Positions 865 through 42,594 of a stretch of DNA of 64,000 nucleotides are shown here, one piece after another. This DNA is from a virus, in the IMG/VR virus record IMGVR_UViG_3300032322_001517, positions 41,665 to 105,664 of that record; one strand, given 5' to 3'. How positions within the stretch are numbered: the stretch's first letter is position 1; every line of letters begins with the position of its first letter. The notes under the pieces were generated by a model, which made no database searches, had not been told where the DNA came from, and saw only the letters and a list, made by a program, of their open reading frames with translations. The translations under genes and the position numbers were made by a program.

Positions 865-893
865 ATATTACTCTAGACCGGAATTAAAGTCAA
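865..893 (-). promoter_or_regulatory. Sigma70-like early promoter TTGACT-N17-TAATAT with ATTCCGG spacer motif
   Basis: One of four near-identical promoters; directly upstream of tRNA-Asn. Confidence 0.75.
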
Positions 894-2413
894 TAATGTA
901 TTTTATTCCCAACAACCAACATATCGATGCTTTTTGAAGCGAATTCTTTTTCAGCCGAAGATATCTTACTAGCTATTGGCTTCCCCGAAACATTAAGACT
1001 AGTATTCAGCAACGCTGGGCATTCAGTAATTTTATAAAACTCTTCTAATATAGATCTCAAAGCAGTACCATTTTTAGAAACTGTTTGAACTCTACATGTA
1101 CCATCAACATGAGTTACCGATGGAACCGATATCTTAGGTACTCCGACATATAGCATATATGGATTTTCATACATTAACCCAAAGCTATCTTTATGTTCTT
1201 CTAAAACAGAAGCACCAAATGGTCTGAAATATTCTCTATTCTTTATCTGATTGATAATATCTTTACCATTGGTAACTCTAGGATCAAAGAGTATAGATCT
1301 ATTACCTAATGCTCTTGGACCTATTTCACCATTGCCTTGATAAAGAGCTACGACTGCACCATCAGCTAAATGTTTAGCAACTATTTTTGCATTTTCCATA
1401 CTTAGAAAGTCTTTAGGAGCCTCATCAGTTGTGCTAAATGGGAAATTCTTCAACTTCATTTTAGGAAGATTGTATTTTCTCCTAAGCATTTCCATTGCAC
1501 CAATAGATAAACCTTCATCTCCGCAATACGGAACTACAACAAGATTAGGATATTTGTTTTTTAATAAAGTATTCCATATAACATTCTGCGCTACACCACC
1601 AGAATAACCTACACGATCATTTGGGGATACAAATTTATCAAACAACTCTAAAACGATTTCCCCTGTTCTTTCGTGAACAGTTCGAACCCAATTTAATTTT
1701 TGTTGTTTCGATAAACTTTGGGTGTTTAGAAAATTTAAATAATTATCCATATTAAAGAGAGTGTCGCCACCAGATACCCTCTTTCTATAAAGAGCATTTA
1801 CATTGTAAATATTATATTTTTGTAATACTTCAAGGTATTCATAATCTATGTTACCGTAAGATTGTAAACCCATCAATTTTCCAGGTCTGTCGATAGGTCT
1901 TCCGGTATTACTAAGTTCGTCAAAGAGATATGAAATATATGTTATGCCATGACCTATAGATCCATAATCTTGAACAATACCTTTAGTTATTAATTCATCA
2001 CCAAAGTATACATGCCAACAATCATTAACTAATCTATCAGCAGAATCTCTGTACTGAGGTCCAGATCCATCTAACACAATATTTTTATCTACGTCATGCA
2101 TAAAACAAACGCTCAATGCGTGAGCTAGATGATGATTGATAGATGTTATGTTTTTATTGACGCCTGTATCAAGTAATAATTGATAGAGTAAACTGTCAAC
2201 GACAACGATTTCATCCATATTTTGGAAAGATGTATTCCAGTATTTGGAAAAAATGCTATTAAAAAATGTTACACAAAGGTCAACATTAATCTTTTTAAGG
2301 CCAAAATGTTTAGAATCTAAAATTCTTTCCAACTTTAGATAATGTGTATTATCGCCATCAAAATAAGTAATATTTGTGTCGTGAGAATAACCACCAATAG
2401 ATAATAATTTCAT
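890..2413 (-). CDS. Carbamoyltransferase, NodU/CmcH/TobZ family
   Basis: HD...LER, HHLAHA, DGSG, GKLMGL..YG, SGGVAQN, E.GPRALGNRSIL, KNRE.FRPF, HVDGTCRVQTV, LLNTSLN motifs. Confidence 0.92.
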   Translation of the reverse strand: MKLLSIGGYSHDTNITYFDGDNTHYLKLERILDSKHFGLKKINVDLCVTFFNSIFSKYWNTSFQNMDEIVVVDSLLYQLLLDTGVNKNITSINHHLAHALSVCFMHDVDKNIVLDGSGPQYRDSADRLVNDCWHVYFGDELITKGIVQDYGSIGHGITYISYLFDELSNTGRPIDRPGKLMGLQSYGNIDYEYLEVLQKYNIYNVNALYRKRVSGGDTLFNMDNYLNFLNTQSLSKQQKLNWVRTVHERTGEIVLELFDKFVSPNDRVGYSGGVAQNVIWNTLLKNKYPNLVVVPYCGDEGLSIGAMEMLRRKYNLPKMKLKNFPFSTTDEAPKDFLSMENAKIVAKHLADGAVVALYQGNGEIGPRALGNRSILFDPRVTNGKDIINQIKNREYFRPFGASVLEEHKDSFGLMYENPYMLYVGVPKISVPSVTHVDGTCRVQTVSKNGTALRSILEEFYKITECPALLNTSLNVSGKPIASKISSAEKEFASKSIDMLVVGNKIHY

Positions 2414-5239: not shown

Positions 5240-5710
5240 TCATCCGCCTTTTATTTTCTTTTTTATATATTCCAATTGATCCTTAGTGAGGATCTTTCTA
5301 GCTGCCTTTGCTTTGGCAATATTGTATTTATAATATTCTCGTATTAGGCGGAGTTCTTGCTGTTCTTTCTCGATTTCTCTTTCTTTTTCAATATCTTCTT
5401 TGGTTTTCTTTTTACCAAACCTCTTAACCTTTCTAATCGAATGGAAAAGATAGTGATAGTGCATTTTGTCAGTAAGATGATAGTTAATATTCATCTCATT
5501 GGCAGCAAATATTGTATCAGAAAAATTAGAAAGGGAACTATTGGTTCTCCATTGGTCGTACTTAAACTCTTGTACACCATCTAAACTCAACAGTTCTTTT
5601 CCATAATTGATTGAGTTCTCAAATCTCCAATCGTACTTTGGTTTTACAACAACTTCTTGTTCTTTTTTTGCCTCTCTAGGCTGAAGAGTAACATCTAGAA
5701 ACTGTTTCAT
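5240..5710 (-). CDS. 62: Clamp loader small subunit gp62
   Basis: ANEMN...LFHSIRK..RF, IREYYKYN..KA; position between 44 and regA. Confidence 0.9.
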   Translation of the reverse strand: MKQFLDVTLQPREAKKEQEVVVKPKYDWRFENSINYGKELLSLDGVQEFKYDQWRTNSSLSNFSDTIFAANEMNINYHLTDKMHYHYLFHSIRKVKRFGKKKTKEDIEKEREIEKEQQELRLIREYYKYNIAKAKAARKILTKDQLEYIKKKIKGG

Positions 5711-6645
5711 ACCAACTCTGCTTCAAGCATAATTTCAGACAAAAATGCAGCGAAGTTGATTTCCGGATTGGCCGAAAACGCATTTTGATATTGATACTTT
5801 GCAATCAACATAATCAAAATGGGTAAAGTTCTCTTAGAAAAATACTCAGAAGCATTGTCATAAAATTCATTGTACAACTGATTGACATCTGTATCAATGT
5901 TATTCTTAACCCACTTTCTGATCTCAGTGAGATTCTTATCCTTCATCAAGGCGATAAGTTCCTTGATAGAAGTTTGCTGCATGTTAGCGAGAATACCAGA
6001 GTCGATTTTGCCTGTAGCTGAATACCGCTGAAGTTCATTAAGAACACGACGCCAATCTGGAAAGTGCTTGTTGATTACTTCAGCAACAACAGCAGGATCA
6101 AACTCAATGGTTTCCTTCTTGAGGATGCACTGGACACGCTTAAAGAACTGACCAGCGAGCTTGGCCATATCCTTCTTGCTGATCTTAAAGTCTACAACTG
6201 AGCAACGCGAATGAAGTGGATCGATGATGCGATTCTTAAAGTTACAGGTGAGGATGAATCCACAATTCTTGCTAAATTCCTCCATAAAATTTCGCAAAGC
6301 TGGCTGTGTTGAGTTTGCGTTAAGGTAATCTGCTTCGTCAAGGATAACGTACTTACGACCTCCAGAAAGAGATACACTGGACGCGAAGTTGAGAATTTCA
6401 TTTCGCAGGGTATCGATATTACCATTCATAGATCCGTTAATTACAATATAGTCACATCCAAGTTGTTCAAGCATAGCTCTTGCTACTGTTGTTTTACCAA
6501 CACCAGCGGATCCAGATAGGATAAGATTAGGGATATTTTTTTGATCAACGAATCGTTGAAAAGTTGCTTTTAAATCAACAGGTAGGATAGTCTCTTCAAT
6601 AGTTTTCGGACGATACTTTTCAACCCACAAAAAATCATCAAGCAT
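5707..6645 (-). CDS. 44: Clamp loader ATPase subunit gp44
   Basis: LWVEKYRP, GSAGVGKTT, DEAD, SRC motifs; start placed at MLDDF behind a GGAG RBS. Confidence 0.97.
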   Translation of the reverse strand: MLDDFLWVEKYRPKTIEETILPVDLKATFQRFVDQKNIPNLILSGSAGVGKTTVARAMLEQLGCDYIVINGSMNGNIDTLRNEILNFASSVSLSGGRKYVILDEADYLNANSTQPALRNFMEEFSKNCGFILTCNFKNRIIDPLHSRCSVVDFKISKKDMAKLAGQFFKRVQCILKKETIEFDPAVVAEVINKHFPDWRRVLNELQRYSATGKIDSGILANMQQTSIKELIALMKDKNLTEIRKWVKNNIDTDVNQLYNEFYDNASEYFSKRTLPILIMLIAKYQYQNAFSANPEINFAAFLSEIMLEAELV

Positions 6646-6660
6646 AGTATTCTCCATCAT

Positions 6661-6707: not shown

Positions 6708-7361
6708 TTAGAAAGTTGACGATTGTTCAACAGCAATCCAATACTCAGCTTCCTTGCCAGAGAAGTGCGAAATACCTCGCGAACAAATACTAACTTCATA
6801 ATCTCCAGGAATGATCTTAATATTTTCCAGCTTGAAGATAGCCTTAAATGTCTTTGTCGTTTCACCAACTTCAATAGAAAAAGTATTTCCATTAGTCAGC
6901 TTTGTATCATCAGCCTGAAGATACAACTTAGAACCATCGCCAACTATTACCATTTCAGGAAGGCTGTTAATACCAGCAGCCTTTTCAATCTTCTTAAAAT
7001 GATCCTGAGAAAGCGTAAAAGAAACATCAATGGATGGCAAATTGATTTCCTTTTCAGGCGGAGCCTTAATTGCGCTTTCATCAGCGAAAGGAATTACCTG
7101 CTTGAGATTACCCTCACGGATAACAAGCTGAGCATCGCCTAGCTTAACCTCAGGATCATTGAACATGCTCAAATTAGCAATGAATGAATCAAGGTTGTAG
7201 ATAGCAAACCTCTTATCGAAAGAGGTTTGAACTTGAGCCTTGGCCATTACAGTCTTTGAAGTTGAAATGGTCTTCAAAGTGTTTCCTTCCTGAATAATAA
7301 TGGAAGGATTAATCTTAGCAAAATTCTTAAGGATATTCACAGTATTGGTATCAATCTTCAT
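6708..7361 (-). CDS. 45: Sliding clamp gp45
   Basis: ILKNFAKINPSI, FAIYNL, KIIPGDYEV, YWIAVE. Confidence 0.96.
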   Translation of the reverse strand: MKIDTNTVNILKNFAKINPSIIIQEGNTLKTISTSKTVMAKAQVQTSFDKRFAIYNLDSFIANLSMFNDPEVKLGDAQLVIREGNLKQVIPFADESAIKAPPEKEINLPSIDVSFTLSQDHFKKIEKAAGINSLPEMVIVGDGSKLYLQADDTKLTNGNTFSIEVGETTKTFKAIFKLENIKIIPGDYEVSICSRGISHFSGKEAEYWIAVEQSSTF

Positions 7362-8603: not shown

Positions 8604-9392
8604 TTAAAAAAATGAATCCAATGTCGCTCCAATTTGTTTACTATTATCCTTTAATCTAAGCTCAGCCATACCAGTTGTTTCGCGTATGTACATGGTGCAG
8701 TAATCTGGAAACATCTCAGCAATTTTACTGATAGATTCATGAACATATTCTTTGGTTCTAATTGTTTGAAGACCACCATCTTCCTTGTAGTAATTTGACT
8801 TTACAGTATAGTCATCAAATCGAACAACAGCACCGTTACGAATATACTGACGAATAGAATATTCATAATCTTCACCATGATTAGTTACGCGAGCAAGGTC
8901 ATCATGATGTTCGACAATAACACCAAACATCGAAGCAATGATATAGCAGAGCTTAGTATAAACTCTTTCCTTCATAAAGTATGCATTGGCAGCAGCGTAA
9001 ATACCAAATGTTTTAGCGCCTACCTTTTCGCACTCTTCAAAGCCACGAAGAATAATTTCCTTCTCAAGGTCATCAACACGACCCAACTTCTGTTCGCTGA
9101 TTTTCTTTTGAACCTCTTCAACGTCATCATCAAACATCATAAGGTAAGTACCTTCTGGGTAATACCTTTCAATGAAGTTACGTTGAGCGCCAATAGTAGG
9201 AACACCAACTACAATGTTTTGGTAGGGAGTATCCTTAAGAGAAAACTTGTATGCTTCATATTCGTTTTCATCAGCAACAAATATGGTGATCTTTGAAGGT
9301 TCTATATTGTAGCTTTCTAGAACCTTCAAAGTTTTCTTTTTAATTGTTTCAGGTCGCTTATATGAAGGAATCGCGATCTCATAATTAATCAT
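8604..9392 (-). CDS. TET-associated glycosyltransferase (TAGT-like, GT-A fold)
   Basis: IAIPSYKR, QRNFI, MMFDDD, GEDYE, GGLQ motifs; stop/start overlap with the TET/JBP gene. Confidence 0.8.
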   Translation of the reverse strand: MINYEIAIPSYKRPETIKKKTLKVLESYNIEPSKITIFVADENEYEAYKFSLKDTPYQNIVVGVPTIGAQRNFIERYYPEGTYLMMFDDDVEEVQKKISEQKLGRVDDLEKEIILRGFEECEKVGAKTFGIYAAANAYFMKERVYTKLCYIIASMFGVIVEHHDDLARVTNHGEDYEYSIRQYIRNGAVVRFDDYTVKSNYYKEDGGLQTIRTKEYVHESISKIAEMFPDYCTMYIRETTGMAELRLKDNSKQIGATLDSFF

Positions 9393-10699
9393 GCAAAAAA
9401 GCTCTCCAAATTAACTGTTTTATTTTTACCGTATGGATCCTTCATATCATGCTTATGAAGGTAATCATACCATTCCTGATCTTCCCACATTCCTGGAGAA
9501 ACACCATTCCACAGATTACGCTGAAGAGGATGATCCTTATTCAAGCGGCGCTCATCAACATACTGCTTGCGGAGATTTTCATATTCCCAAGACTGGAGTT
9601 CAAGCATCTTTTCGCGGAAGTATGCAACAATAGTCATACGGTCGTTATCATCACCTAGAAGAGCATCATTACCATGAATACCACCATGGTTATTTACAAG
9701 CAACATGTCTCCAGGTTGGATATTGATTGCGATACGATACTCAGGAAGAATAAACTCACCACCTCGCCAACCCTTACCGTCGGGTCCAGTTACACCACAG
9801 ATGTTAGAGAAACCTTCGTGAAGGTCGCCAGCATCTCGGTGACAGGCAGTACGCCAGTTGTGATTAACTGTAAGGGTAGTAAAAACAGTATCCGAAATAC
9901 GGAAACGATGATCAAGTTGTTGAGCAGCGTTGTTTTGCTTAGCCCAACGATTAGGAAGAAGTTCCTTGAACTGCTGATCCAACTTGCGCAGATAAGGATA
10001 CGAAAGCGCAAACTTCTCAAGGTTCTTTTCAGTATAAGAAGTTGCACGTCCATAAGGAATGCGAGGATAACGATCAAAGTAACCAGCGATGCCAGACATA
10101 ACGGACTGAGCGTAATTAGTTTCAGAAATGTAATTCTTAGCTACATACTCAGCTTCTTTACGCTGTTCTTCGCGTGTCATATTACCTAGACCATCAACCC
10201 ACTTGTCGAACCAACCGTGGTATTCAGGATACTTCTTGGTAACTTCTGAACGAAGCCATACTTGACCGCGAGTTTCTTCTTTCTTTGAAGATGCCTGGTG
10301 ACGAGCACGAATTGAGTCAATGCTATCATCTTCAACAATAGCATTCTCAGGTCTTAGAAGAAAATCGAGTATGTCAATATGATATTCCGTAACCCAATCT
10401 CTACCGCCGCGACCATTAGCGCCAAGCATATCGCCACGTGGTCCTGCAGCCAACCCGCGATTTTGTGACTCAACAGCAGCTTCTCGTAAACCAGCATACG
10501 CAGCATCTTGCTCTTCCTTTGTAAAAACATTTTTTCTATACTTAAAAATTATGTTTTCTTCAGAGATAGATCCATCAAGCGACTCAGCATACAAGTCACA
10601 ATCTTCGTTGATTACACGATCAGCGTAATCCTTAACTGTGATGAAAGCACCAAGAGTTTCTTCTGAATCAATTTTTTTTCTAACTATAATTTCTACCAT
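9389..10699 (-). CDS. TET/JBP-family 2-oxoglutarate/Fe(II) dioxygenase
   Basis: FTTLTVNHN.RTACHRD.GD (HxD), GGEFILPEY, GDMLL, IHGN (distal His), RMTIVAYFRE (2OG-binding Arg). Confidence 0.88.
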   Translation of the reverse strand: MVEIIVRKKIDSEETLGAFITVKDYADRVINEDCDLYAESLDGSISEENIIFKYRKNVFTKEEQDAAYAGLREAAVESQNRGLAAGPRGDMLGANGRGGRDWVTEYHIDILDFLLRPENAIVEDDSIDSIRARHQASSKKEETRGQVWLRSEVTKKYPEYHGWFDKWVDGLGNMTREEQRKEAEYVAKNYISETNYAQSVMSGIAGYFDRYPRIPYGRATSYTEKNLEKFALSYPYLRKLDQQFKELLPNRWAKQNNAAQQLDHRFRISDTVFTTLTVNHNWRTACHRDAGDLHEGFSNICGVTGPDGKGWRGGEFILPEYRIAINIQPGDMLLVNNHGGIHGNDALLGDDNDRMTIVAYFREKMLELQSWEYENLRKQYVDERRLNKDHPLQRNLWNGVSPGMWEDQEWYDYLHKHDMKDPYGKNKTVNLESFFA

Positions 10700-15281: not shown

Positions 15282-15472
15282 CGCATAACTCTCGTGTTAG
15301 GTCTAGTAACTGGCTTGCTGGTGTTATGTTTGTTGATTACAACAGAACAATAATCTCTAATAGCTTCTAGTCTCAAAATATAGTTCATTTTTTCATTCTC
15401 ACGAACTGTTGGCGAGTTAGATTTTTCACCTATATCTAAAACTATAGGTGGAATCAAATGTTCATTTTTCAT
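15278..15472 (-). CDS. Hypothetical protein
   Basis: Overlap-coupled ORF between 55 and 47. Confidence 0.7.
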   Translation of the reverse strand: MKNEHLIPPIVLDIGEKSNSPTVRENEKMNYILRLEAIRDYCSVVINKHNTSKPVTRPNTRVMR

Positions 15473-15995
15473 TATTATCTCCTAAAAATTTTTCTATTCC
15501 AGATATTTTATCCTCTTTTTTTGGTTTAGTCAACTTATTTTCATAAGATCGAACTACCTCAGCAGAGTACTCATTAACTCCTATCTGAATATCATTATCG
15601 CCATTGAACAACTCGTTCATCAAATACAAGTTCTCAAAGTTTTTGTGTTTAATATAAGTCTGCTTCTTTTCCTTGTGGATCCTTCGGATGAAGGCATTCC
15701 ATGCGATCTGAGTAAAATAAGCAAAAGGGTTGTTGGTTTTATCTGGATTAAAGTTATCTACTGCAGCTATACAATCAATCATAGCATCAGAGATCATGTC
15801 TTCTTTGTATGTGTATCCAGAAAAGTTAGGCTTCTTGGCTAGATTGTTACAAATTAAAACAATAGATTCACCTATGTACCTAGGAACTTGTGGCTTCTTT
15901 TTATTTTTTTGTTCAGCTTCCCTAAGAGAGTTCTTATAATGAATCATAGCACCATAAAGAGTTTTGTTATTAATGTAATTATTAGTTCTTGCCAT
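15462..15995 (-). CDS. 55: Late-transcription sigma factor gp55
   Basis: YINNK, NFSGYTYKEDMISD, NPFAYFTQIAWNAFIRRI.KEKKQ. Confidence 0.96.
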   Translation of the reverse strand: MARTNNYINNKTLYGAMIHYKNSLREAEQKNKKKPQVPRYIGESIVLICNNLAKKPNFSGYTYKEDMISDAMIDCIAAVDNFNPDKTNNPFAYFTQIAWNAFIRRIHKEKKQTYIKHKNFENLYLMNELFNGDNDIQIGVNEYSAEVVRSYENKLTKPKKEDKISGIEKFLGDNNEK

Positions 15996-35317: not shown

Positions 35318-36553
35318 TCAAACTCCGAATTTAGGATTAAATTTACCTATAAAATATTTGCGAGTGTTTATAGGCATTTTGAGATATTTGATTGGTATAT
35401 TAGGATATTTTTTTATAACTCCTGTATTATATTCAAGTATCGCATCTTCAATATTTGTTTTTCCAAAAAAAATTTCAGATGCAATAATATCAGCGCTCTT
35501 TTTCCATTCTCTACGATATTGTATTTTTTTAGGCGTAGAATACTTGTATACGTATGGCGAAAACAATCGATCAATTGACAACTTATCATATATCAATCCT
35601 TTCACCATTAATTTATCTCTAACGCCTCCTGATTTCCATAGTCTAAACGCATCATATATTTCTTTATCATTTTCTAAAACTTTTTTAATTATATGAGCTT
35701 GTTTTATCGGTATCAGGGGTGATTTTGTCGACCAATAAAATTGTTCAAAAAAACATCTTTTGTCAAAACTATGTGTGTTTACCAATCTAGCAGAAACATA
35801 AACAGTATCATTAAAATTAAAATAAAAATTTTCATTTTCGATTTGAACAATTGGTTTTTCTATGCCTGTTATCATGGCAGTTTTTTTATTTGCGTTGATA
35901 TATTTTTGATTATGTTCATAATTTACAGCGGTGATACATCTGCTTGTTCTAACAAGCGGAAATCTACTTGTTGCTATTTTTTTATATTTTGGGTTAAACG
36001 TTGAAAAATTACCAGATATAATGTCATCTAAGAAAAAATCTGTCGCATCGATATCTACTATTTTAGTATTAGGACTTCTTTTCTTAATTTCCTTTAGATG
36101 TTCTAAAGCGCAATCATCATATTCAGTAAAAATATCCAATCCCTCTTTCTTAAGATAATTTTTATCAAGGTTTTTTATTAAATTTGAAAAGTGAAATATC
36201 TGTACTTCATCTAAGAATATTCCATTATCTAAAAACGTGTAAAGAATTTCAGTTGAATCAGTGCCACCAGAAAATGAAAGTATGAGATATTCATATTCTT
36301 CTCTCAAAGATTTAGCTCTTTGTCTATAAAGTTCTTCTAAAGAAAACGGTGGTTCTTCTGACCAGTTTAGATATTTAAAATAATTATCATGAAAATTAAA
36401 GGATATATTTTTATCAAAAGTATTTTTTTGTTCCATATAATCGAATATCAATTCTCTAGATATAAATAACTTGTTGTCATGTTCATAATATCCATTATAA
36501 AGCAACGGTTTTTCATCAAAAGCGTATATCTTATTTGATATAATTTTTAGCAT
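35318..36553 (-). CDS. PP-loop (adenine nucleotide alpha-hydrolase-like) protein
   Basis: W.EEP..SL.ELY..RA..LR..Y.YLILSFSGGTDS. Confidence 0.7.
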   Translation of the reverse strand: MLKIISNKIYAFDEKPLLYNGYYEHDNKLFISRELIFDYMEQKNTFDKNISFNFHDNYFKYLNWSEEPPFSLEELYRQRAKSLREEYEYLILSFSGGTDSTEILYTFLDNGIFLDEVQIFHFSNLIKNLDKNYLKKEGLDIFTEYDDCALEHLKEIKKRSPNTKIVDIDATDFFLDDIISGNFSTFNPKYKKIATSRFPLVRTSRCITAVNYEHNQKYINANKKTAMITGIEKPIVQIENENFYFNFNDTVYVSARLVNTHSFDKRCFFEQFYWSTKSPLIPIKQAHIIKKVLENDKEIYDAFRLWKSGGVRDKLMVKGLIYDKLSIDRLFSPYVYKYSTPKKIQYRREWKKSADIIASEIFFGKTNIEDAILEYNTGVIKKYPNIPIKYLKMPINTRKYFIGKFNPKFGV

Positions 36554-40773: not shown

Positions 40774-42594
40774 TTACGAAAAATACGAACCTGTAACGCC
40801 TGTGCCAGTAGTTTGGAGTCTAGGAAATGATAAGTTAGAACCAGTAGAAGTGGTTTCGTTTGAATAACGATAAATTTCTACTGAAGCTAGAGGACTTGTC
40901 CAAAAATTGTTGGATTGACCATAAGAAACTATACCAGCTACATTAGAACTAACAGAACCGCCTGCCCATCTAAATGTAGAAAGCGTAGTACCAGAAGTAA
41001 CAGTATCTCCTGAATATGTATATTTATACGTACTTCTATTTTCTCCAGCTGATTGGATACCGCTTGTAATAAGTCCTACAGTAGAGTTTCCTAATGGAAC
41101 AGCCCATCCTTTAGGATTTGTTAAAGATGTTGCAGCTGCCATAACGTTAGAAGAGTATGTATACTTTTCAGTAGTAGCGATATAGTTAATTGTATTAGAA
41201 CCACCACCAGCATAAATTGCCACTGTCGACTTATCTGTTATAGCTGAATGTAACCATCTTCTTGTAATCAGAGCAGCTGCCGAAGTTCTAGTTTCAGCTG
41301 CATAATTATATTTGTCATGCCTTCCAGCAAAAGTTCCTGGCGAAGTAAGGTTTATCGCGCCACCAGAAACATAACCATCTGTTGTAGTTCCAGTAGCAGC
41401 TCCGTAATTAGCAGCATTAGCGATCGTAGCTCCTGCTGCTACAGCATCTCCCGAATAGGTATACTTAGCAGTAGTCGCAATAGGAGAAGCCGTTTGATTT
41501 GCGCCAGCGAAGAAAATAGCTCTGGTTTCATTTCCAGAACCAGCAGTGCCCATAGCGTGTCTTACAAGGGTAAGGTTAGTTCCAGTTGTAGTAGCGTCTG
41601 TCGCATAATAATATTTTGATGTAAGTGCTGTTGAAACTGTAGTATAACCACCAGCAATGACGCCAAATTTAGAAGAAGAGAGACCGTAGCCAGAAGACAT
41701 GGATATTTGGCCGCTAGGAACACTTAGTAAAGTTCTTACGCTTAAATCGTCCAAACTATTTGATAATGTACTAGGGAAACCAAGAGCCAAGTTTACGTTA
41801 GACATACCGATACTACCAGAAGCTGGTAAAGCAACAGGAGTCCATTCCCAAGAAACTATAATTGCTCCTTGTGCTCCTTCACTGTAATTACTTCCGTCAG
41901 GTTGCCCAGCACTAATTATCGCAGTTCCGCCACCACCGCCGCCAAAAAGACCACCAGAACCTCCAGGGTAAAATGTGTCTGGCCCATCATCACCAGCATC
42001 CCTGCTTTTGGCTCCAGTTCCACCAGACCCAGCATAGTTAGTACCATAAAAATTACCACGAGGAGCGTCTCCGCCCGTGGATGTTACGCTTGCAGCGCCA
42101 CCAGTTGCTCCTCCAGCGCCTGAAGTACGTCCACTGCCATTACCGCCCGCTGCAGTATCACCACCTGCTCCACCACCACCACCATAGTTTTGTCCAGATG
42201 AATGTGTTGCTGAAGCTCCGTTACCACCGTTCCATTTGGTTGTACCAGTGGAATTAGTAGCAGAACCACCTGTGCCACCAGTGCCAGAAGTCGCAGCTCC
42301 GCCGTTACCACCCTTGGCTAATACAGTACCACTATTGAACGAAGTATCACCGCCTACGCCATTAATAGCACCACCAGCTCCAATACTAACCGGAATTGAA
42401 GCTCCAATAGTTAACGAAATATTATTACTGATTGCACGTGCGCCACCGCCGCCGCCACCAGTTGCTGCTCCACCAGTGTTAGCGCCACCACCACCGCCAC
42501 CACCAATACAGGAAACGCTGTTATTTGAGTTGTTCCAAGATTTTGGTACGGTCCAAGTTGTGCCGGAAATAATAACAACTGTGCTTCTTGGCAT
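40774..42594 (-). CDS. Glycine-rich protein with Kelch-like repeats; putative tail adhesin
   Basis: N-terminal GGGGGG domain; about six ~47-aa GG...T.KY.Y......L repeats. Confidence 0.7.
   Translation of the reverse strand: MPRSTVVIISGTTWTVPKSWNNSNNSVSCIGGGGGGGANTGGAATGGGGGGARAISNNISLTIGASIPVSIGAGGAINGVGGDTSFNSGTVLAKGGNGGAATSGTGGTGGSATNSTGTTKWNGGNGASATHSSGQNYGGGGGAGGDTAAGGNGSGRTSGAGGATGGAASVTSTGGDAPRGNFYGTNYAGSGGTGAKSRDAGDDGPDTFYPGGSGGLFGGGGGGTAIISAGQPDGSNYSEGAQGAIIVSWEWTPVALPASGSIGMSNVNLALGFPSTLSNSLDDLSVRTLLSVPSGQISMSSGYGLSSSKFGVIAGGYTTVSTALTSKYYYATDATTTGTNLTLVRHAMGTAGSGNETRAIFFAGANQTASPIATTAKYTYSGDAVAAGATIANAANYGAATGTTTDGYVSGGAINLTSPGTFAGRHDKYNYAAETRTSAAALITRRWLHSAITDKSTVAIYAGGGSNTINYIATTEKYTYSSNVMAAATSLTNPKGWAVPLGNSTVGLITSGIQSAGENRSTYKYTYSGDTVTSGTTLSTFRWAGGSVSSNVAGIVSYGQSNNFWTSPLASVEIYRYSNETTSTGSNLSFPRLQTTGTGVTGSYFS

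Follow-up and report, generated by a model that had tools for sequence, protein, structure and literature searches.

Two predicted DNA-modifying enzymes encoded side by side in a viral genome, a dioxygenase of the TET/JBP type and a TET-associated glycosyltransferase (TAGT), end in the same short peptide, and comparison of this tail with those of known clamp clients makes it quite likely that it docks on the phage sliding clamp gp45, as the tail of the DNA polymerase gp43 does in T4, so that DNA modification would be tethered to the clamp. Base modification, most likely of thymine, would then probably take place at the clamp, on phage DNA that has just been copied. The stretch analyzed here (the window) comprises 64,000 nucleotides, positions 41,665 to 105,664 of IMG/VR record IMGVR_UViG_3300032322_001517, and is part of a 105.6-kb viral contig of a T4-like myophage with a CheckV completeness of 63%. 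The elements in question are as follows:

9389..10699, minus strand: TET/JBP-type 5-methylpyrimidine dioxygenase (5mYOX; hereafter TET), 436 amino acids (aa); PF12851, 62.4 bits (cut-off 34.9)
9392..9412, minus strand: C-terminal tail of the TET, N-L-E-S-F-F-A, a clamp-binding-type motif, from the open reading frame (ORF) and the DNA
8604..9392, minus strand: TAGT, 262 aa; PF20691, 62.8 bits (cut-off 27.5)
8607..8624, minus strand: C-terminal tail of the TAGT, T-L-D-S-F-F, from an ORF ending ...KQIGATLDSFF before the stop codon
6708..7361, minus strand: gp45 sliding clamp, the proposed docking partner; C-terminal domain PF09116; phrog_223

In the TET, an N-terminal extension some 200 aa long precedes the catalytic domain, which is followed by a linker and the tail; its residues H287, D289 and H342 (Fe(II)/2-oxoglutarate ligand motif H-x-D...H), as well as R354, are invariant in 31 homologues. 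Its ORF runs to ...KNKTVNLESFFA and the stop codon. The enzyme ends given in the preliminary description (...VNLESFFA for the TET and ...GATLDSFF for the TAGT), together with the location of gp45 1.2 kb away, were confirmed by reading of the ORFs and the DNA, 1243 bases separating the gp45 start from the TAGT stop. The TET stop and the TAGT start share an ATGA overlap (9389-9392), which suggests that the two tailed enzymes are translationally coupled. In a profile search with 27 gp45 homologues, matches were obtained to the RB69 clamp (1B77/1B8H, E 4e-35) and, at full length, to the T4 clamp (1CZD). The window thus encodes a cognate clamp of the gp45 family, and the clamp loader as well.

A conserved C-terminal motif

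When the homologues of the two enzymes were pooled with the genes of about 105 related IMG/VR loci and aligned on the motif, the tail took the consensus form [ST]-L-[DE]-x-F-F followed by zero or one residue. Of the distinct homologues, 185 of 195 for the TET and 132 of 134 for the TAGT have this tail, which bears out the conservation that the preliminary description had proposed to check. The leucine at position 0 (entropy 0.15-0.23 bits) and the phenylalanines at +3 (0.20-0.23 bits) and +4 (0.11-0.13 bits) are nearly fixed; positions +1 (D or E) and -1 (S or T) are not invariant, position +2 is free and variable, and the linker ahead of the motif is variable (2.5-3 bits). Each enzyme was also compared with 120 close homologues (66-99% identity), nearly all of which share the terminal residues and differ in the residues preceding them. 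In clusters formed at 50% identity, the pattern was found in 12 of the 30 representatives of 400-520 aa, with near-variants in three to four more, and tail matches among the representatives extend down to 39% identity; most of the short representatives (about 300 aa, catalytic domain only) have no tail.

In the AlphaFold2 models of the two enzymes, the tail follows the last structured element as a disordered extension. The TAGT model, with a predicted local distance difference test score (pLDDT) of 84.9, is globular to about residue 248, and pLDDT is below 50 for its residues 252-262 as well as for residues 426-436 of the TET. A near-invariant motif behind a variable linker of low pLDDT is, in alignments and models alike, what characterizes short linear motifs used for docking.

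A matching tail on the polymerase

The tails of the three T4 clients, read from NC_000866, are ASLDFLFG (gp43), NTLDFLL (gp33) and PSLDFLYEAND (gp55), much as the preliminary description had given them. They have been defined experimentally as highly similar, interchangeable, hydrophobic-acidic epitopes that bind gp45 (PMC2988020, where the RB69 clamp-peptide crystal structure is also described). One common pattern, [ST]L[DE]x[FL][FLY], fits all three as well as the tails of the TET and TAGT in the window, and by homology with T4 and RB69 the latter two would be expected to bind gp45.

With gp43 missing from the contig, three relatives were chosen that hold both gp43 and TET:

G006, 141 kb, TET identity 72%: gp43 ends ATLEDFFQ, TET ends ASLEDFFV
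G007, 173 kb, TET identity 74%, CheckV 100% complete: gp43 ends ATLEDFFG, TET ends STLDSFF
G008, 79 kb, TET identity 61%: gp43 ends STLEDFFG, TET ends ASLEDFFDD

A scan with the C-terminal half of gp43 returned 80 loci of the lineage, and all 80 of the sampled C-termini end ...[ST]LE[DEGS]FFx or in a near variant. Five partial relatives (64-99 kb) searched with PF00136 gave no polymerase match. The gp43 gene is split in G006 and G008, where ORFs of about 424 and 448 aa lie around an ORF of about 220 aa (G006 137151-140393; locus L128), and is a single 822-aa gene in G007.

Three phages, of which DLP6 and Cr30 are culturable relatives, allow the tails of polymerase and enzymes to be compared within one genome:

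Stenotrophomonas phage DLP6: gp43 ATLDSFFA, TET ATLGDFFV, TAGT SDLSSFFN
Phage C48C1: gp43 ATLEDFFG, TET ISLEEFFV, TAGT not present
Caulobacter phage Cr30: gp43 ADLSSLFD, TET GATLF, TAGT SDLSKLF

The change from FF to LF in the Cr30 polymerase is mirrored in both its TET and its TAGT; that is, the tail co-varies with gp43.

The late sigma factor gp55 also carries a variant of the motif:

15462-15995, minus strand: gp55 late sigma factor gene; phrog_234, E 4e-52
15483..15497, minus strand: I-E-K-F-L motif near the gp55 C-terminus, followed by GDNNEK and corresponding to ...SLDFLYEAND of T4 gp55

The protein ends ...SGIEKFLGDNNEK. Most of its 43 homologues in the lineage have a motif of the G[VIL][ED]xF type followed by an acidic run, an arrangement that mirrors that of T4 gp55; a few are without it.

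Restriction to DNA-modifying enzymes

Among the 441 ORFs of at least 40 aa in the 105.6-kb contig, only the TET and the TAGT have L[DE]SFF-type ends. A wider census covered 2321 clustered ORFs from the contig, G006, G007 and related loci, and found the strict tail in 158, namely 155 in four families of DNA-modifying enzymes (a count that includes a small, divergent transferase-like group), two gp43 and one MazG. By family, the tail is carried by 99 of 108 TETs, 24 of 26 TAGTs, 11 of 12 members of a 201-aa methyltransferase-like family and 20 of 51 proteins resembling amino-acid:DNA transferases (ADDTs), most of the other ADDT-like proteins ending G[LI]ExFM(E). MazG has it in one of 87, and it is absent from gp45, gp44, gp62, regA, gp46, gp47, the deformylase (PDF), the DenV-like protein and the P-loop kinase, as well as from the 66 homologues of a GT-A-like protein and the 73 of a DUF3310 protein. 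A chance origin of the tails is ruled out by the counts over the contig and the 2321 ORFs.

The complete genome G007 has the strict tail in only four of its 213 ORFs: gp43, the TET, the 201-aa protein, which sits directly downstream of the TET, and a 359-aa protein of the ADDT family (PF18724 / phrog_3271). The 201-aa family, with a weak Pfam methyltransferase match (E 0.004) and Atlas feature scores of 0.85-0.87, possibly has a class I methyltransferase fold, which we regard as a lead and not as a finding. Enzymes producing sugar nucleotides, such as the DLP6 nucleotidyltransferase and the C48C1 UDP-galactopyranose mutase, have no tail. Within these clusters, the tail marks proteins expected to act on polymeric DNA, though not all of them. 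A role in capsid targeting or as a degron was rejected, the tail being common to gp43 and otherwise confined to a few DNA-modifying families. Two further G007 proteins have ends that are motif-like and off the pattern: an unannotated 186-aa ORF between gp45 and gp44 (102867-103427), which ends ATLKDFLGV, and gp32 (9754-10656), which ends ...DDESLEFFKKLAG.

No tail was found on the TET and TAGT homologues of four phages that are not T4-like (Pelagibacter phage HTVC112P, Nonlabens phage P12024L, Mycobacterium phage Donny and Arthrobacter phage Altadena); these proteins stop at the end of the globular domain. A ParB-like gene adjoins the TET in HTVC112P, Donny and Altadena, and not in P12024L, and the ParB-adjacent TETs match the ParB-dependent 5mYOX class of PMC13229309. 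ParB_N gave no match in G000, G006 or G007, in a search of limited sensitivity that recovered the HTVC112P control and missed the annotated ParB-like protein of Donny. Phage S-CBWM1 gave no match to a gp43-type polymerase, and its tail-less TET and its TAGT ending ...ELEDLLP are unusable either way.

Probable substrate and pathway

The C5-cytosine methyltransferase family PF00145 has no match in G000, G006 or the complete G007, and for this reason thymine is the likely substrate of the TET. The suggestion in the preliminary description that phage DNA could be selected with no methyl mark fits this absence, because thymine would then be the substrate. From these comparisons, the TET most likely oxidizes thymine to 5-hydroxymethyluracil (5hmU), and the TAGT would then glycosylate 5hmU in this phage, giving a product like base J.

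The TAGT is replaced in sister loci by a class II glutamine amidotransferase (GATase), a 294-aa protein, an ADDT and a P-loop nucleotide kinase 3; GATase, P-loop kinase 3 and ADDT are genes of thymine hypermodification (PMC13229309). The amidotransferase (L014:7040-7723; 42 homologues in related loci) directly follows the TET in many sister phages and has a nearly invariant C-terminus, [IVAY]-[EK]-D-L-Q. Together with the end of the DLP6 gp33 homologue, ATLEAFQET, the amidotransferase ends may represent a second, weaker clamp-type tail of the form [LI]-E-x-[FL]-Q. The 294-aa protein that comes after it (L014:7720-8604; 34 homologues) has a faint Amidoligase_2 match and a conserved basic C-terminal motif of its own, G-K-x-R-[KE]-F-[LI]-x-V.

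Proposed clamp-tethered modification and its alternatives

The following scheme would account for the tails. While the phage DNA replicates, the gp44/62 loader would place the trimeric gp45 ring at its primer-template junctions, where the ring, as in the 'toolbelt' description of T4 gp45, would present three hydrophobic pockets. Tailed enzymes would take the pockets that gp43 leaves free and slide along with the clamp. Close to the fresh DNA, the dioxygenase would oxidize a 5-methylpyrimidine, most likely thymine to 5hmU, and the TAGT would glycosylate the oxidized base; in the sister phages, the route through a P-loop kinase and an amino-acid:DNA transferase would stand in place of the TAGT step. 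The coupling to replication and the selectivity for phage DNA are what we infer from this scheme. A precedent for contact between such an enzyme and the clamp is the T4 alpha-glucosyltransferase (alpha-GT), which co-purifies with gp45 (PMC13216743).

A model of the complex, as put forward in the preliminary description, was predicted from three copies of gp45 (27-row alignment) and TET residues 400-436 (31-row alignment). It scored 0.47, whereas the best of three controls scored 0.00 (in one control, also at 0.00, an unrelated protein took the place of gp45), and was graded 'weak support'; the runs agreed in 51% or more of the contacts, with a partner pLDDT of 38 or higher. Of 80 solved complexes, 58 reached the mark that it passed, as did two of 110 mismatched pairs; at 0.60 or below, it was reached by only seven of the 80 solved complexes and by both of the passing mismatches. 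We take this prediction as minor support.

Several points weigh against clamp-tethered modification. The pass of the predicted complex may reflect memory of a similar solved complex, 1B8H. The polymerase tail is deduced from relatives, gp43 being missing from the 63%-complete contig. Not every known clamp client uses the tail in this lineage: the preliminary description had proposed to look for the motif on gp43 and gp33, and it is there on gp43 in all 80 loci and missing from gp33, whose lineage homologues (phrog_254; G007 6879-7106, G006 35373-35567) end ...ENLNILKRGARLPI, without the motif. The gp33 homologue of Cr30 ends ...KLNYLPKRTRIPGFE, likewise with no T4-type clamp epitope, which suggests that gp33 of this lineage has a different contact with the clamp or with RNA polymerase. 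Some enzymes expected to act on DNA are without the tail: the GT-A-like protein and the P-loop kinase, the ADDT of Cr30 and, in G006, the neighbor of the TET. Finally, the contact of T4 alpha-GT with gp45 does not determine the share of alpha-glucosylation (PMC13216743), and other phage T-dioxygenases are active in Escherichia coli without a phage clamp (PMC13229309); tethering may therefore be dispensable for catalysis.

The T4 alpha-GT result would also suit a mainly regulatory role, in which the tails bind gp45 either to license modification after the onset of replication or to compete with gp43 and gp55 for the pockets and so tune replication or late transcription. That gp45 also activates late transcription, with pockets common to gp43, gp33 and gp55 (PMC2988020), speaks for such a role as well. 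We nevertheless think it unlikely: the tail is found on four unrelated families of DNA-modification enzymes and on no regulators, a restriction that tethering explains more directly. That the tail docks on some ring or hub other than gp45, for example the host beta clamp or another replisome protein, seems rather more doubtful still. The consensus for binding to the bacterial beta clamp is QL[SD]LF, and the Cr30 variants DLSSLF, DLSKLF and ATLF resemble it, while the weakness of the gp45-tail model would also be in keeping with another partner. Against this, the model control with gp45 exchanged for an unrelated protein scored nothing, the T4-like phages under study encode gp45 and have the tail, which is absent from the four other phages, and the same tail stands on every one of the 80 gp43 proteins, the gp43 tail of T4 and RB69 being one that binds gp45 (1B8H; PMC2988020).

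It would also be conceivable that the C-terminal segment is intrinsic to each enzyme, serving folding, activity, oligomerization or turnover, and that its likeness to the polymerase tail is convergence with no shared partner. This is very improbable, as a single motif closes four unrelated folds and the polymerase alike, in each case behind a variable linker of low confidence, homologues in other phages are complete without it, and the motif changes together with gp43 in Cr30. Docking on gp45 for clamp-tethered modification is the reading that we prefer.

Other genes of the window

The minus strand of the window encodes regA, gp62, gp44, gp45, the GT-A-like protein, the DUF3310 protein, TAGT, TET/JBP, MazG, the DenV-like protein, peptide deformylase, gp46, gp47 and gp55. 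Further members are:

5240-5710, minus strand: clamp loader gp62; Pfam Phage_clamp_A (phrog_168/phrog_225 are listed for the loader pair)
5707-6660, minus strand: clamp loader gp44; Pfam Gp44_lid/AAA
7419-8273, minus strand: GT-A-like protein of 284 aa, a tail-less neighbor; phrog_1574, no Pfam family
8270-8593/8632, minus strand: DUF3310 protein, a tail-less neighbor; PF11753

Searches of the 105.6-kb contig with T4 protein queries gave no match for gp43, gp33, gp32 or gp59; only gp45, gp44, gp62, gp55 and RNase H were present. The matches of the region to a cultured-phage collection in blastn were weak and partial only. The GT-A-like protein lies within about 1 kb upstream of gp45, or adjoins it, in the window, G006, G007, DLP6 and Cr30, and has a conserved basic C-terminus, ...ATADP(T/S)ALKKGKK. 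A NodU/Nol-like carbamoyltransferase (890-2413, minus strand; phrog_1601, E 3e-123) lies amid tRNA genes; speculatively, it could decorate the sugar added by the TAGT.

Comparison with known systems

Clamp-binding tails are textbook knowledge for gp43, gp33 and gp55. The tails described here resemble those epitopes of T4 and RB69 (1B8H) in being hydrophobic-acidic peptides of the common pattern that follow a flexible linker and lie at the C-terminus or close to it, in phages that have a homologous clamp and the same tail on their own gp43. They differ in that the carriers are base-modifying enzymes and not a polymerase or transcription factors, that the lineage consensus is L-[DE]-x-F-F as against L-D-F-L-F in T4, and that gp33 of the lineage, unlike that of T4, has no epitope. 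T4 DNA ligase (6DRT) is a related known system with an internal clamp-binding loop.

A closer functional parallel is T4 alpha-GT, a phage DNA glycosyltransferase that contacts the clamp (Sommer et al. 2004, as cited in and confirmed by PMC13216743) and whose gene lies in the 45-46-47-55 region. This enzyme (GT-B, PF11440), however, ends ...KEQFDIITK, with no polymerase-type tail. It also acts on 5-hydroxymethylcytosine incorporated before polymerization, whereas here the canonical tail is on the oxidase and the transferases of a post-replicative pathway.

The known 5mYOX pathways of phages (PMC8256090, PMC13229309, bioRxiv 10.1101/2023.12.21.572611), which include ParB-dependent and ParB-independent T-dioxygenases, share with the present one the combination of TET/JBP with TAGT, or with GATase, P-loop kinase and AADT, the lack of a C5-methyltransferase and 5hmU as the likely product. 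The enzymes here differ in carrying a clamp-type tail, and G007 has no ParB_N match (in the search that also missed the ParB-like protein of Donny). The 5mYOX literature searched mentions gp45 and clamp genes as neighbors only, and the tail is undescribed in the full-text literature searched, subscription journals lying outside its coverage. New here are the extension of the tail to ADDTs and the methyltransferase-like family, the census of four in 213 ORFs in a complete genome, the co-variation in Cr30 and the contrast with phages that are not T4-like, in most of which the TET adjoins a ParB-like gene.

The core L-[DE]-x-F-F resembles that of the eukaryotic PCNA-interacting peptide (PIP) box, and in eukaryotes the PIP-box contact of DNMT1 with PCNA couples DNA methylation to replication. 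Both there and in the scheme proposed here, a DNA-modifying enzyme would be brought to new DNA by a short L-x-x-F-F-like clamp peptide, although the clamp lineage, the enzyme and the chemistry are different, and the PIP box, which contains a conserved Q, does not lie at the C-terminus of DNMT1.

A post-replicative thymine oxidase, unlike an enzyme that depends on a methyl mark, has a targeting problem, because thymine is in host and phage DNA alike. A portable clamp-docking peptide common to these enzymes and the polymerase would offer a solution, since phage DNA in replication is the only DNA on which the phage loader places gp45. More generally, and far more tentatively, gp45 might be a general toolbelt for post-replicative hypermodification in T4-like phages, on which dioxygenase, glycosyltransferases, ADDTs and methyltransferase-like proteins would dock through one portable peptide that replaces the ParB-like activator with which 5mYOX enzymes of other phages are partnered. 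A DNA-encircling partner would in that case be a general requirement for phage T-dioxygenases to locate phage DNA and to confine themselves to it. The presence of the phage's own gp43 tail would, if the tails dock on the clamp, be a sequence rule for finding DNA-acting enzymes in T4-like genomes, and it already flags the unannotated methyltransferase-like family. Clamp-tethered modification, if true, would be a phage parallel to the coupling of DNMT1 and PCNA, and among 5mYOX systems its counterpart would be the ParB-dependent class described in 2026.

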